Source: Escherichia coli (GTDB lineage: Bacteria > Pseudomonadota > Gammaproteobacteria > Enterobacterales > Enterobacteriaceae). From it: a DNA stretch of 64,000 bases. The DNA lies in assembly GCF_001677475.2 (NCBI RefSeq), contig NZ_CP015229.1. One strand, 5' to 3'. The notes under the pieces are model-generated. The model searched no databases. It was not told the origin of the DNA and was given only the letters and a program-made list of their open reading frames with translations. How positions within the stretch are numbered: position 1 is the stretch's first letter; each line of letters opens with the position of its first letter. Both the position numbers and the translations under genes were made by a program. Of the stretch, positions 2,770 through 64,000 are shown in pieces.

Positions 2770-2820
2770 ATGATTATGATAAGATTTATGCATTCATAAC
2801 CCGATCCATCTGGAGGAACT

Positions 2821-3746
<926 letters not shown>

Positions 3747-3899
3747 TTTCACTTCACGACACTCCAGCCAATTTTGGGAGGAGTGTCGTACCGTTACGAT
3801 TTTCCTCAATTTTTCTTTTCAACAATTGATCTCATTCAGGTGACATCTTTTATATTGGCGCTCATTATGAAAGCAGTAGCTTTTATGAGGGTAATCTGA

Positions 3900-4793
3900 A
3901 TGGAACAGCTGCGTGCCGAATTAAGCCATTTACTGGGCGAAAAACTCAGTCGTATTGAGTGCGTCAATGAAAAAGCGGATACGGCGTTGTGGGCTTTGTA
4001 TGACAGCCAGGGAAACCCAATGCCGTTAATGGCAAGAAGCTTTAGTACGCCCGGAAAAGCCCGACAACTGGCATGGAAAACCACCATGCTGGCAAGAAGT
4101 GGGACTGTCCGTATGCCGACTATTTATGGTGTGATGACGCATGAAGAACACCCCGGCCCCGATGTCCTGCTACTGGAGCGGATGCGTGGTGTTTCGGTGG
4201 AGGCACCAGCCCGAACACCAGAACGCTGGGAACAACTCAAAGATCAAATCGTTGAAGCCTTACTGGCCTGGCACCGTCAGGACAGTCGCGGTTGCGTCGG
4301 CGCGGTCGACAATACTCAGGAAAATTTCTGGCCCTCATGGTACCGGCAACATGTTGAAGTGCTATGGACCACGCTCAATCAGTTCAATAACACCGGTCTA
4401 ACGATGCAGGATAAGCGGATCCTGTTTCGTACTCGCGAATGTCTCCCGGCATTATTTGAAGGCTTTAACGACAATTGTGTGCTGATTCACGGTAACTTCT
4501 GTTTACGCAGCATGCTGAAAGATTCGCGCAGCGATCAGTTACTGGCGATGGTCGGGCCGGGACTAATGCTTTGGGCACCGCGAGAATACGAACTGTTCCG
4601 ACTAATGGATAATTCTCTGGCGGAAGATTTGCTCTGGAGTTACCTGCAACGCGCGCCAGTGGCGGAGTCATTCATCTGGCGGCGTTGGTTGTATGTGTTA
4701 TGGGATGAAGTTGCGCAACTGGTTAATACCGGACGATTTAGTCGGCGCAACTTCGATCTGGCATCAAAATCACTCTTGCCGTGGCTCGCCTGA
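3900..4793 (+). CDS. ycbJ: Putative phosphotransferase/kinase-like protein YcbJ
   Basis: 297 aa ORF, conserved position; 3' end overlaps convergent elyC by 24 bp. Confidence 0.7.
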   Translation: MEQLRAELSHLLGEKLSRIECVNEKADTALWALYDSQGNPMPLMARSFSTPGKARQLAWKTTMLARSGTVRMPTIYGVMTHEEHPGPDVLLLERMRGVSVEAPARTPERWEQLKDQIVEALLAWHRQDSRGCVGAVDNTQENFWPSWYRQHVEVLWTTLNQFNNTGLTMQDKRILFRTRECLPALFEGFNDNCVLIHGNFCLRSMLKDSRSDQLLAMVGPGLMLWAPREYELFRLMDNSLAEDLLWSYLQRAPVAESFIWRRWLYVLWDEVAQLVNTGRFSRRNFDLASKSLLPWLA

Positions 4794-53326: not shown

Positions 53327-53363
53327 AAAATCCCCGGAAGGCTAAAACCTTCCGGGGATTTGT
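53325..53363. terminator. Bidirectional terminator between convergent yccU and hspQ
   Basis: tccccggaagg-ctaaaa-ccttccgggga hairpin flanked by A6 and T-rich runs. Confidence 0.85.
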
Positions 53364-55635: not shown

Positions 55636-55725
55636 AATTATTACTACCTTAATCAGACTGGCGGCAGTGTAACAAAAAACAAAGCCCCGCATAAAGCGAG
55701 GCTCGGTAAGTAACCCTGGGCGAGA

Positions 55726-56548: not shown

Positions 56549-56580
56549 AAAAGAAAAAGGGGTTAGCATTTAGCTAACCC
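56549..56580 (-). terminator. Rho-independent terminator of serT, retained next to the displaced tRNA fragment
   Basis: ggggttagc-attta-gctaacccc hairpin followed by T-rich run on minus strand directly 3' of the tRNA CCA end. Confidence 0.75.
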
Positions 56581-56591
56581 CTTATCTTATT

Positions 56592-60639: not shown

Positions 60640-60831
60640 TTAAAGTCCTGCCGGGACTTCGTTATTATCCATGCGAATAACTTTATCGACCGGATAACAG
60701 TTACCGGGAATTTTTTGTTCTGCTGCGGCAGCCATGCATTCTTTCATTGAACCGTATAAGCCAGTCACCAGCTCAAGAGATTCGCCGGAAACAAGATAAA
60801 CTGTCAGAACGAGTGCAAATGTTGTATTCAT
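60640..60831 (-). CDS. Hypothetical small protein (63 aa) with hydrophobic N-terminal segment
   Basis: ATG preceded by AAGGA SD; start overlaps upstream stop (ATGA); sequence MNTTFALVLTVYLVSG suggests signal/TM segment. Confidence 0.55.
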   Translation of the reverse strand: MNTTFALVLTVYLVSGESLELVTGLYGSMKECMAAAAEQKIPGNCYPVDKVIRMDNNEVPAGL

Positions 60832-61016
60832 TGTTTATATCCTTTTTGCCGCAGGTCCAGACGAGCCAGCATTGAAGGAATGCATACTTCATTTAACAGG
60901 TCCTGCTCGAGTGTTCTCTGCTTAATGGCGTCTTCAATAAATGTTTTGTCTCCGGTGATAACGCCAATTTCGAAACGAAGTTCAGACGTACTGGCATTGC
61001 ATGATAACTTTTCCAT
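60828..61016 (-). CDS. Hypothetical small protein (62 aa)
   Basis: ATG preceded by GAGGA SD at 7-nt spacing; translationally coupled to downstream 63-aa gene. Confidence 0.55.
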   Translation of the reverse strand: MEKLSCNASTSELRFEIGVITGDKTFIEDAIKQRTLEQDLLNEVCIPSMLARLDLRQKGYKQ

Positions 61017-61033: not shown

Positions 61034-61186
61034 TGAATTTTGTGATGCGGTGCCTGGTGCCTCCAGGTGACGTTAACCAGTTAACAATTAACGCCGGAGT
61101 ATTTCACGTTACGCCAGTAAAGGACCGCTTTACTGTTTTAACTGTTCCGCGTGCGCTTAGCCGCATTCACCGCATCACAAAATTCA
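61034..61186. repeat. 19-bp perfect inverted repeat (TGAATTTTGTGATGCGGTG / CACCGCATCACAAAATTCA) flanking a 115-bp hairpin-rich spacer
   Basis: Arms at 61034-61052 and 61168-61186; spacer holds nested hairpins cctgg-tgcct-ccagg, cgttaa...ttaacg and cagtaaag-gaccg-ctttactg; no ORF over 26 aa on the minus strand across 61017-61573. Confidence 0.7.
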
Positions 61187-61573
61187 CTTTAAAAAGGGCG
61201 GACATCAGCCAGCAATGAAAACTGATGCCGCCAAAGGTACCAATCAACATGGAGTGTTGCGGCGGGGTTGTCACTCAGGCGTATGGTCAACCTGACAACC
61301 CGGTGTCACCAGTGGGGGTAAGGAAAACCCCGCCATACTTACCGCCGCGCCATTTCGCGGAGTGCCACAACCGGAAGCGCACGGTCGACGAAAATTTAAC
61401 GACAGGCTATCTATGAACCATAAACCTCGCCGTGCGCTTTCGCGTTATGCCCTGACTTTTCAGGGAAATATCCTTTCAGTAAACTGTCAGTGCCGGATGT
61501 TCACCCGTGTCCGGCGCACGCACTCCACCTCACCCGTGGAGAACCCCTTAATTACCAACCCTCAGGAGAGTGA

Positions 61574-62423: not shown

Positions 62424-62515
62424 GTCAGCTCCTTGTGGTTCGCATTGCCTGCTTTTAACCACGTCAGGCGAGGTGGTATCCTCTGAGGGGTCTGTTACTC
62501 GAGAGGAAATTGGTT

Positions 62516-62716
62516 ATGAATACAATCAAGTTTTCTTGCCCAGAATGTGGTGGCGAAGTCTTTGACACATCCTTTAAGCCGCAGGGCTCTGACAGTTTCG
62601 CGGGAGCCATCTGCAAAAATTGTGGTCACCTTGTAACTGAAGATGAGTCCTCGCAGTTCGATGACGAAATCGTTGATAATATCTTCGGCGCACTCACCAG
62701 AGATTTCCTGAAGTAA
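62516..62716 (+). CDS. Small zinc-ribbon protein (66 aa)
   Basis: CPEC-x19-CKNC motif; GAGAGGA SD 8 nt upstream of ATG; divergent from the 71-aa gene with 92-bp shared upstream region; fewer rare codons than the overlapping antisense ORF. Confidence 0.5.
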   Translation: MNTIKFSCPECGGEVFDTSFKPQGSDSFAGAICKNCGHLVTEDESSQFDDEIVDNIFGALTRDFLK

Positions 62717-63030
62717 AAGCGCATGCCGTTTAGTTACCGCTCTGATCATTCTTACTTGTCCGGTAATGGCGCTGACATCAGTATAAAGCGCCATTGCTGC
62801 TTCTTTGCCGATCCCAGGATGCCTTCCATTCTGATGTTTGACTTCGCCCACTGAGAAATCCTCTGTTTCCCCTTAACGCCGGGGTAGCGGAACAAAAACC
62901 TGCTGCATAGTTAAAGTTGAACCCTGCCGTCATGTTCTTACGCCTCGGGCTGGCTACTTAACCCCTGACCACTGCCTGGTAACTCGAAGTATTGCCCTGC
63001 GTTTTGTGGGGCGGGGTGGGTTAGTAAAAA

Positions 63031-63052
63031 TAGTTTATACAAAAATAAACTA
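63031..63052. repeat. 22-bp palindrome TAGTTTATACAAAAATAAACTA (candidate operator or structural site)
   Basis: Perfect 8-bp arms around a 6-bp AT core, in the 400-bp non-coding gap between the zinc-ribbon gene and the ParE-like gene. Confidence 0.5.
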
Positions 63053-63116
63053 AACAGTCAATATGCAACTTAACTCTTTGGCGAGGATAACCCCTGTTGA
63101 GAGGGGCTTCGGGGGA

Positions 63117-63404
63117 TTAAGGTGTTACAGGGAACTGTCGGCGGGCGTGAACTACGCTAACAATTTCAATGCCTGAAATTGTCACGCGGTATAGAATTAT
63201 GTAATTGGGGTGAGCAACAATTTCACGCAAACCCGGAACTCTGTCGCTTGGCGGGTATAAATACGGATGCTCAGATAATGGCAGGACGCAAGTCCTTAAG
63301 CGTTTCCACAAACGTTCTGCCGCATCTATATCAAAACGAGCAATATAGCTAGTTATATCATCCAAGTCGGCATCTGCGCTTTCGAGCCATAAAACCGGTA
63401 ACAT
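63117..63404 (-). CDS. parE: ParE/RelE-family toxin
   Basis: 95 aa; family pattern (LPVLWLESADADLDDITSYIA ... PGLREIVAHPNYIILYRVTISGIEIVSVVHARR); start abuts antitoxin stop (TAAATG). Confidence 0.8.
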   Translation of the reverse strand: MLPVLWLESADADLDDITSYIARFDIDAAERLWKRLRTCVLPLSEHPYLYPPSDRVPGLREIVAHPNYIILYRVTISGIEIVSVVHARRQFPVTP

Positions 63405-63596
63405 TTACTGCTTGCTCCGTTCCTTGCGCATGTTAGCAAAGCGTTCAGCCATTCTGCGTTCAACTTCGTCATGTGGGATGGCTGGACGTGGATCAGCAAG
63501 GCTTGCGGCCACTTTTGCACGCAGCCATTCGTTATAACTATTTTCTTGCTCGATGGTTTCAAATTCAGAAACCATTGGTGAAAGGGCTGTGTTCAT
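63405..63596 (-). CDS. Small antitoxin (63 aa), PaaA-like partner of the ParE-like toxin
   Basis: ATG at 63596 with GAGG SD; immediately upstream of toxin; size and position as in recalled three-component paaR-paaA-parE modules. Confidence 0.7.
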   Translation of the reverse strand: MNTALSPMVSEFETIEQENSYNEWLRAKVAASLADPRPAIPHDEVERRMAERFANMRKERSKQ

Positions 63597-63631: not shown

Positions 63632-64000
63632 CTAGGTAACTTTTTGTTGTGCTGCTAGCCACCTTGCAACTATACGATCCATTGTCTCTTTTTTTTCCTT
63701 CATATCTTTAAGTATTTGCTGTTGATCTTCCTCTGGAAATGCCTCAAATGTTTGAAGTAGCTCCTTTTGCTTAGGAGATATTTTTAATATATCCTGTGTT
63801 TTGTCTTCTTTTTCTTCATTTAATGGTAAGAAAAACCAATGTTGGGGAAAACCCGTTACTTCAGATAGTTTATCTAGATTAGCTGCTGTAGGGCTTGATA
63901 TACCACAAACCCACCTTTGGACGGATTGTTGAGCAATACCAATTCTGCGCGCAAGCTCTGCTTGACTCCAGCCTTTTTCTAATAGAAGCATCTTAATTCT
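63632..64000 (-). CDS. HTH XRE-family transcriptional regulator (PaaR-like), 5' end beyond window
   Basis: Helix-turn-helix signature GWSQAELARRIGIAQQSVQRW; frame open to window edge; 35 bp upstream of the antitoxin gene. Confidence 0.75.
   Translation of the reverse strand, partial: RIKMLLLEKGWSQAELARRIGIAQQSVQRWVCGISSPTAANLDKLSEVTGFPQHWFFLPLNEEKEDKTQDILKISPKQKELLQTFEAFPEEDQQQILKDMKEKKETMDRIVARWLAAQQKVT

Follow-up and report, generated by a model that had tools for sequence, protein, structure and literature searches.

A conserved structured leader RNA in the probable early-left control region of a Rac/Qin-like Escherichia coli prophage

The stretch of DNA analysed here (the window) comprises 64,000 nucleotides of the Escherichia coli contig NZ_CP015229.1 (assembly GCF_001677475.2), and all positions refer to it unless another locus is named. 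Its end is occupied by the left arm of a Rac/Qin-like lambdoid prophage that is transcribed on the minus strand. Read from right to left, the gene order is a DicA-like helix-turn-helix (HTH) protein, a PaaA2-type antitoxin, a ParE toxin, a gap, a zinc-ribbon gene on the opposite strand and ydfC, followed leftward by an open reading frame (ORF) of 139 amino acids, a DicF-like RNA, a dicB-like ORF and a large exonuclease gene. The gap (62717-63116) measures 400 bp and lies between convergent 3' ends, that of the plus-strand zinc-ribbon ORF at 62716 and that of the minus-strand ParE-like ORF at 63117. An earlier description made from the letters alone (the sequence-only reading) took it for a non-coding interval downstream of both genes. 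The convergent ends and the non-coding character are borne out, whereas the second part of the description misses a minus-strand promoter inside the gap. Very probably the gap is the early-left (PL-type) control region of the prophage, i.e. the 5' control region and leader of the early-left operon, read on the minus strand and made up of a repressor-guarded promoter and a conserved leader RNA. The best explanation of the locus as a whole, to which even chances are given, is that this leader in addition modifies early-left transcription.

The core of the leader (Table 1) is one long hairpin of three helices followed by a single-stranded tail and a small hairpin. Sixteen divergent copies were folded singly and, except for one or two (L148 and, in part, L079), have the same architecture: an outer helix of 3-5 bp and a middle helix of 3-6 bp, separated by an internal loop, then a 5' bulge of 4-6 nt with AAC at its end, an inner helix of 6-7 bp and, at the apex, the motif CAAUAC-YNN-GAGUUA. 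Past this long hairpin come the single-stranded tail AAGUAGCYAG and a small hairpin with GAGGCRUAYGAA in its loop. The helix sequences are wholly different among groups, the inner helix for example being GCCGGG/CCCGGC, CACUGAG/CUCAGUG, ACGAAG/CUUUGU or AAUUAAG/CUUAAUU. The helices covary strongly. They were specified by hand and then checked against controls in which the pairing partners were slid by 1-3 columns. In an unfitted MAFFT alignment of 55 sequences, standard pairs occupy 80.8% of cells (17-49% in the slid controls), both sides have changed in 18 pairs and covariation scores 0.246, where the controls reach 0.076 at most. With 24 diverse sequences aligned to the covariance model, 85.3% of cells are paired (23-40% slid) and the score is 0.571 against at most 0.095, although such a fitted alignment leans towards the structure, which was moreover derived from the same sequences on which it was scored. 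Retained G-U pairs fit the minus strand only, which is the strand read from the promoter. Because the 5' arms are misaligned in the plain MAFFT alignment, RNAalifold did not recover the long hairpin from it and proposed instead a GUUAY/GUAGC pairing between the invariant motifs, which covariation cannot judge.

Rfam 15 has no counterpart of this RNA: a scan of the gap gave nothing at E ≤ 1 and, at E ≤ 10, one 16-bit chance match on the opposite strand, and a scan of a Gilliamella copy of the leader found nothing. A full-text literature search with the sequence motifs, the flanking Rac genes and put-like RNAs, in which the older literature was covered in part, returned no description of the element. 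The leader RNA is a widespread structured phage early-leader element absent from Rfam. The sequence-only reading had allowed for a small RNA in the gap; an RNA element is present, as a conserved structured 5' leader rather than a stand-alone small RNA with its own terminator.

Immediately upstream of the leader lies a sigma70-type promoter-like site. Its -10 hexamer may be either TATAAA (63039-63034, 16-nt spacer) or TAAACT (63037-63032, 18-nt spacer); the promoter scan calls the TTGACT/TAAACT pair, and the sequence predicts a transcription start near A63025. The TTGAC of the -35 element aligns in eight upstream regions that are otherwise unrelated, and of 120 distinct regions upstream of the element, drawn from many phages, 109 have a sigma70-type promoter. 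The -10 of 97 among these 109 ends 35-40 nt ahead of CAATAC, so that the first RNA helix starts at about +5 to +10. When the loci are aligned, conservation starts abruptly a few bases past the TTGAC...TATAAT-type promoter, and the upstream sequence and its palindromes differ at each locus. By analogy this boundary is the pattern of lambda, in which immunity-specific operators (OL) overlap the promoter and are followed by a leader common to immunity types. The slot is also that of PL, OL and nutL in lambda, between the immunity region (with accessory genes, cf. rexAB in lambda) and the early-left genes.

The promoter spacer and the -10 are covered by a 22-bp palindrome, which the sequence-only reading had placed exactly; its suggestion of regulatory sites in the gap is supported by the palindrome together with the minus-strand promoter. 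By length alone the repeats in the gap are little above chance, with rough expectations of ~0.4 pairs of 8-bp arms and ~0.1 pairs of 9-bp arms per 400 bp at spacers of up to 60 nt, and their significance comes from context and not from statistics. The palindrome is best read as an operator overlapping the promoter, not as a free-standing hairpin. Relatives each carry their own, different palindrome at the equivalent position, and by analogy the window copy is probably the immunity-specific operator (OL-equivalent) that the prophage's own repressor would bind. The gene for this repressor lies beyond the window end; in L159, a locus of the window's immunity type, it is found at 3557-3928.

Rac provides a close parallel. 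There, the palindrome TAGGCATNNCCTA occurs twice around the promoter of the leader and three times in the racR-ydaS intergenic region, with 12 matches against 0.98 expected. The racR-ydaS intergenic region is bound by RacR in vitro and in vivo, and its TTAGGC/GCCTAA repeats were proposed as RacR sites (PMC5700373). The two TTAGGC...GCCTAA palindromes that precede the K-12 element on the left-hand side were found here and are not described in that paper; the window palindrome has the equivalent position and a different sequence, as for a different immunity. In the relative L001, the 97-bp spacer between repressor and cro contains a further copy of the PL palindrome, with 3 mismatches. In L159 the PR region has TTGACTGGTTTATTTAGTTGCGTATAAACT, compared with TTGACTGTTTAGTTTATTTTTGTATAAACT at PL, and shares TTGACT-N16-TATAAACT and GTTTAT/ATAAAC half-sites with PL; the exact window palindrome, sought there at up to 3 mismatches, is absent. 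The PR and PL sites are clearly related, yet their dyad spacing differs, and the operator role of the window palindrome is therefore well supported by analogy, not proven.

Table 1. Positions of the leader RNA, its control sites and the neighbouring features in the window
Feature	Position	Strand	Details
Sigma70-type early-left (PL-equivalent) promoter, predicted	63032-63061	-	-35 TTGACT at 63061-63056
22-bp palindrome	63031-63052	.	arms TAGTTTAT (63031-63038) and ATAAACTA (63045-63052), 6-nt spacer
Conserved structured leader RNA, core	62924-63025	-	102 nt; covariance model R1, 111.1 bits, E 1.9e-27, sole match in the window
Outer helix	63017-63013 with 62965-62961	-	part of one long hairpin
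Middle helix	63009-63006 with 62972-62969	-	followed by 5' bulge ending AAC
Inner helix	63001-62995 with 62979-62973	-	seven pairs; outermost is a C.A mismatch in the window copy
Apical motif CAAUAC-YNN-GAGUUA	62994-62980	-	near-invariant
Tail AAGUAGCCAG	62959-62950	-	3' of the long hairpin
Small 3' hairpin	62950-62948 with 62928-62926	-	after the tail
3' leader extension	62866-62923	-	conserved in the E. coli/Salmonella subgroup only
Fast-evolving non-coding spacer of the PL transcript	62717-62865	-	9-bp inverted repeat and first (5') third of the antisense ORF lie here
9-bp inverted repeat AATGGCGCT/AGCGCCATT	62765-62773 and 62787-62795	.	repeat search
Short hairpin CCCCU-CUCAAC-AGGGG	63091-63106	-	11 nt past the ParE stop codon, then UUAUCCU
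Zinc-ribbon gene (ECs_2282 family, CPEC...CKNC)	62516-62716	+	NCBIfam NF047912, 57.3 bits (cut-off 37); left border of the gap
Antisense ORF	62495-62851	-	118 amino acids, GTG start; overlaps the zinc-ribbon gene
ParE-family toxin gene	63117-63404	-	Pfam PF05016 ParE_toxin, 61.4 bits (cut-off 23); right border of the gap
PaaA2-type antitoxin gene	63408-63596	-	PF21217, 73.7 bits
HTH_3, DicA-like protein gene	63635-63991	-	cut by the window end; NF007257, 55.7 bits (cut-off 101)
DicF-like RNA	61196-61245	-	RF00039, 44.1 bits (gathering score 48)
STnc100-like match	61039-61184	-	38 bits (against 47)
dicB-like ORF	60828-61016	-	DicF-like and STnc100-like matches lie upstream, within the early-left operon

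The leader is far more widespread than the rest of the gap. A megablast search with the whole gap gave matches in 3722 of 5426 complete E. coli genomes; only 354 cover most of it, and the great majority cover just 62866-63026 (query 150-310), a segment that carries no annotation anywhere. Its place in K-12 W3110 is in Rac, with racR on one side and ydaG, the first early-left gene, on the other; in other strains it is flanked by a repressor gene, LexA/cI-like or of another kind, and a DUF1391 gene. BLAST in a distant mode added diverged copies in Salmonella, Arsenophonus and an E. coli phage-plasmid, after a repressor gene and pointing into early-left genes, as well as a copy in the T7-like Serratia phage Kaonashi. 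The order repressor gene, segment, first early-left gene, in early-left orientation, holds in every annotated relative (K-12 Rac, O18, ARS-C301, O157-type strains, Salmonella, Arsenophonus and the E. coli phage-plasmid). A degenerate pattern then located the element in more than 120 viral contigs and at 25 genome loci from six Enterobacterales genera (Superficieibacter, Arsenophonus, Pectobacterium, Serratia, Prodigiosinella and E. coli), and a second pattern in T7-like contigs of ~42 kb and in a low-GC group. A protein search identified the host of the low-GC group as Gilliamella (order Orbales); DNA searches of phage and plasmid collections gave no match for it. Most copies were collected with a pattern that fixes the apical and tail motifs. 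A scan with the tail only yielded four further copies with the apical motif changed at one base (CAAGAC), and 18 of its 23 new pattern hits are not the element. Model R1 matches once per locus, and no second copy, on the PR side or elsewhere, was found in 25 loci, among which those of E. coli reach ~3 kb past the repressor.

The surroundings of the element differ among groups. In T7-like phages it follows an A1-like promoter, and a boxA lies further downstream. T7 itself (L158) has CCGGAUAAGUAGACAGCCUGA in its A1 leader (527-595), resembling the leader tail UUAAGUAGCCAGCCYGA; with a partial, tail-like match and a covariance-model E of 0.14, T7 was not accepted as a member, and the likeness may be that of a degenerate relative or a coincidence. 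On an Arsenophonus nasoniae plasmid (L011) the leader RNA (2480-2585) is followed by a boxA, CGCTCTTTAACA (2607-2618), and a boxB-like CGCTGAAAAAGCG (2625-2637), and downstream of both leader RNA and nutL an N-like protein with an arginine-rich N-terminus is encoded at 2797-3141. Gilliamella-type prophages (L171, 3995-4320; also L162, L164, L165, L168 and L170) carry a covarying hairpin ~150 nt past the element, in the variants GCCCATTT...AAGTGGGC or GCGCATTC...GAGTGCGC, and in L162, L164 and L171 a strong intrinsic terminator, GCCCTC-N4-5-GAGGGC-T6-7, lies further downstream, in L171 directly before the first ORF. At these loci the RNA could form a non-coding transcript of its own, ~300 nt long, or could be an attenuated leader. 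Separately, the immunity and early-left region of the Actinobacillus phage vB_Apl-pPE4 (L006) is nearly identical to that of the E. coli plasmid p727A3-47K (L012), a phage-plasmid, and L006 carries the Rac-like genes DicA, YdaT, Kil and exonuclease VIII; the assignment of vB_Apl-pPE4 to an Actinobacillus host looks doubtful.

No phage protein family common to the T7-like, Gilliamella and E. coli loci was found within the flanks compared, and a host partner is therefore indicated. The leader may represent a previously unrecognised class of phage RNA that acts independently of phage proteins by binding a conserved host machine, be it polymerase or termination factors, a nuclease or a defence factor; the chances of this are put somewhat below even. 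Such an RNA would be the common first transcript of temperate lambdoid prophages (including Rac of K-12), virulent T7-like phages and Gilliamella prophages.

The same observations suit a decoy, that is, a trans-acting RNA or aptamer that neutralises a host factor (a nuclease, defence protein, RNA chaperone or small RNA), either within the transcript or released from it. The leader would be the first sequence transcribed in temperate and virulent phages alike, near-invariant unpaired motifs suit a conserved host ligand as does the lack of a co-occurring phage protein, one copy per genome would be enough, and the Gilliamella terminators ahead of the first ORF make a discrete ~300-nt RNA conceivable. 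In E. coli, on the other hand, the copies have no terminator or obvious processing site past the element, and complementarity of the motifs to 16S, 23S and 5S ribosomal RNA or to three tRNAs does not exceed that of shuffled controls. A decoy is regarded as rather unlikely.

Similar standing is given to a stabiliser or processing element at the 5' end, which would protect the transcript from RppH/RNase E decay or direct a cut by RNase III or RNase E. The RNA is strictly 5'-terminal in unrelated promoter contexts, and its long irregular hairpin (~20 bp with bulges) and its occurrence in T7-like early leaders agree with such a role; RNase III processing and mRNA stabilisation are established for T7 early leaders, and the ompA-type 5' stem-loops likewise place structure at the 5' end of a long transcript. 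Coexistence with N and nutL, as in Arsenophonus, would be unproblematic. A stem would suffice for a stabiliser, however, and both the ompA-type stem-loops and the T7 processing hairpins act by structure alone, whereas the leader keeps long unpaired motifs in its apical loop and tail near-invariant across two bacterial orders, Enterobacterales and Orbales. In addition, ~8 nt are unpaired ahead of the first helix, more than classical 5' stabilisers tolerate. The stabiliser and decoy roles are each nearly as likely as the put-like mechanism discussed below.

In the E. coli/Salmonella subgroup the core is continued by a 3' extension, in which a variable hairpin between GGCAG and GCAGCAG is followed by GUUCCGCY and then CCCCGGCGUUAAGGGG; at other loci the ribosome-binding site of the first gene comes directly after it. 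Covariation in the extension is weak and concerns two small helices (GCA/UGC to GCG/CGC and CCC/GGG to CCG/CGG). Together with the near-invariant unpaired nucleotides framed by covarying helices, the extension invites comparison with a riboswitch-like sensor, in which a ligand would be held in a pocket of the conserved hairpin and tail, and the early-left genes would be controlled through alternative pairing with the extension. The 3' strand of the small hairpin (GGC) can indeed pair alternatively with the downstream GUUCCGCC, and in Rac a CCCC/GGGG hairpin abuts the ribosome-binding site. This would-be expression platform is nevertheless missing or replaced in most groups outside E. coli, the downstream contexts are mixed (a direct ORF, a spacer, nutL or terminators) and no riboswitch in Rfam resembles the leader, all of which make a sensor very unlikely.

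Coding could in principle also account for the conservation, with the antisense ORF as the first gene of the operon, a short peptide translated from the AUG of GAACAUGACGG, or a decayed gene. The sequence-only reading had left the coding assignment ambiguous, had thought a decayed gene possible and had proposed a comparative alignment as one of the checks. The antisense ORF exists as it described it, a Shine-Dalgarno-like AGAGGA precedes its GTG start (ORF 62851-62495), and it matches PHROG 21318 (62498-62794, E 1.3e-60), a family of unknown function and 99 amino acids built from predicted phage ORFs; no family of Pfam or NCBIfam matches it. The substitution pattern in homologues favours the zinc-ribbon frame over the antisense one. 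Across five distinct homologues, the 8 variable sites of the zinc-ribbon coding region are without exception third codon positions in its frame and first codon positions in that of the antisense ORF (chance (1/3)^8), and the zinc-ribbon gene, which PGAP annotates in relatives, passes the NF047912 cut-off. In 62717-62851, where the antisense ORF does not overlap this gene, the 16 variable sites (5 homologues) divide 6:3:7 by antisense codon position, and a third-position excess is seen in no minus-strand frame, which also speaks against a decayed gene. The variable sites, the NF047912 match and the match to PHROG only make it most likely that the antisense ORF is a shadow of the zinc-ribbon gene rather than a gene itself, and PHROG 21318 is probably a family of shadow ORFs. 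A disrupted zinc-ribbon gene was seen in E. coli E2855 (L002, 3096-3397), where two single-base insertions lie 12 nt apart and PGAP instead calls the antisense ORF a frameshifted pseudogene. As for a short peptide, GAGG stands 9 nt ahead of a conserved AUG within the leader element; a conserved short ORF (GAGG-N9-AUG) was rejected as a feature of the family, since T7-like and some Gilliamella copies lack the AUG and the length of the ORF varies between 6 and over 50 codons. Nor would coding be expected to give rise to paired changes that keep helices intact, and in all three forms this explanation is highly improbable.

Among known systems, the put RNA of the lambdoid phage HK022 is one of those closest to the leader. 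The put RNA binds the zinc-binding domain of the RNA polymerase beta' subunit and suppresses pausing and termination. Like the leader, putL is a structured RNA of ~70-100 nt that starts a few nucleotides into the PL transcript. No phage protein is required by put RNAs, whose conserved unpaired nucleotides are framed by stems (PMC9378689). Conserved unpaired nucleotides are framed by stems in the leader too, and it likewise seems to need no phage protein. The two differ in that put consists of two comparable stems (~70 nt) and has a PR-side copy, whereas the leader has a long three-helix hairpin and a short one; the leader also occurs beside a nutL/N system, in Arsenophonus, and in T7-like phages. 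Homology to put was considered and rejected: blastn of the module against the HK022 immunity region gave chance words only, and model R1 has no match in HK022.

Transcription from PL very probably starts near 63025 and proceeds leftward, antisense through the zinc-ribbon gene, to continue into ydfC, DicF, dicB and the exonuclease gene; the conserved leader RNA would make up its first ~100 nt (up to 160 nt in E. coli). By analogy with put, the nascent leader would fold as soon as the repressor leaves and would engage a conserved host component, the likeliest target being the transcribing RNA polymerase or its termination machinery. Early-left transcription would thereby be made resistant to pausing and termination, whether by Rho/NusG or at the DicF terminator, and the distal early-left genes would be expressed. 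That the leader acts in cis in this put-like way is offered tentatively, as a possibility with fewer chances for it than against.

A need for read-through is indicated on several sides. A DicF hairpin with a U-tail (GUUUUA) lies upstream of dicB and the exonuclease gene and is a terminator in the path of PL transcription. In the Gilliamella copies the leader is separated from the first ORF by strong terminators, and in Rac the expression of kilR is reported to depend on read-through when NusG is repressed (PMC5793797). An N-dependent route was not apparent: the 607-nt window leader, searched at up to 3 mismatches, contains no rrn-type boxA; it has a single 8-mer of the lambda type, with 1 mismatch, and lacks a boxB. 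Nor is an N-like protein encoded in the window, where the sole arginine-rich ORF lies inside the exonuclease gene in another frame. In this the leader is unlike lambda, and since the Arsenophonus element lies upstream of a genuine nutL, the element is a separate module.

Several observations weigh against a put-like function. The leader RNA does not simply replace N and nut, given that in Arsenophonus it stands ahead of a canonical boxA with a boxB-like hairpin and of the gene for an N-like, arginine-rich protein. The leader is present in a single copy per locus and never on the PR side, whereas HK022 has both putL and putR, and its sequence is not similar to that of put. In T7-type phages, the early operons contain few terminators that would need to be overcome. 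The invariance of the apical and tail motifs is partly imposed, because the collecting pattern required both. Against the early-left architecture itself there is little. The minimum-free-energy fold of a 176-nt stretch is no stabler than its shuffles (z = +1.46), with non-significant z-scores on both strands, and the case for the structure therefore rests on covariation. Finally, the PR region has no second palindrome of the window's immunity type with the spacing found at PL.

The remainder of the gap and its borders fit a control region to which a toxin-antitoxin insert has been added. ParE and PaaA2 family matches are present in a PaaR2-PaaA2-ParE2-like set, in which the HTH protein falls below the DicA family cut-off and is incomplete at the window end; from the sequence, the ParE gene appears to be the last gene of a three-gene PaaR2-like HTH/PaaA2/ParE insert. 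In E. coli SCU-171 (99.6% identical), another gene of 123 amino acids and then a divergent cro-like gene lie beyond the toxin-antitoxin genes, which makes the three genes an insert that separates the prophage repressor from the early-left operon. The hairpin just past the ParE gene is real and lies two bases to the left of the position first given for it; it is conserved only in close relatives, was not called by the terminator scan and is at best a weak terminator or a 3' stabiliser of the toxin-antitoxin transcript. The 9-bp inverted repeat, likewise real and four bases to the left of its first placement, keeps its stems unchanged among relatives while loop and flanks vary, in a set of sequences too small to judge. 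As the sequence-only reading had it, the gap holds no convincing terminator: a search for a GC-rich stem with a U-run on both strands of 62717-63116 came back empty, and neither of the hairpins at 63091-63106 and 62765-62795 has a U-run. On the far side of the gap, the PL transcript probably runs antisense through the zinc-ribbon gene; in Rac, sieB is likewise oriented against the early-left genes. Further down the left arm, terminator-like hairpins with stems of 9-15 bp, one of them bidirectional, occur on the minus strand at 56557-56583, 55682-55704 and 53328-53361, and may mark operon or prophage boundaries.

If the leader RNA is what it appears to be, a strongly covarying structured RNA has escaped annotation in roughly two of every three complete E. 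coli genomes, among them that of K-12 with its Rac prophage, and it would connect lambdoid prophages with T7-like phages. The leader marks the position of the early-left promoter and operator in Rac-type prophages, a side that is less described than racR-ydaS in the sources searched. It also offers a handle on how Rac/Qin-type prophages, which lack N, express kilR, dicB, recET and xis/int past Rho/NusG and intrinsic terminators, and it is a compact candidate for a second protein-independent, host-directed leader RNA besides put.

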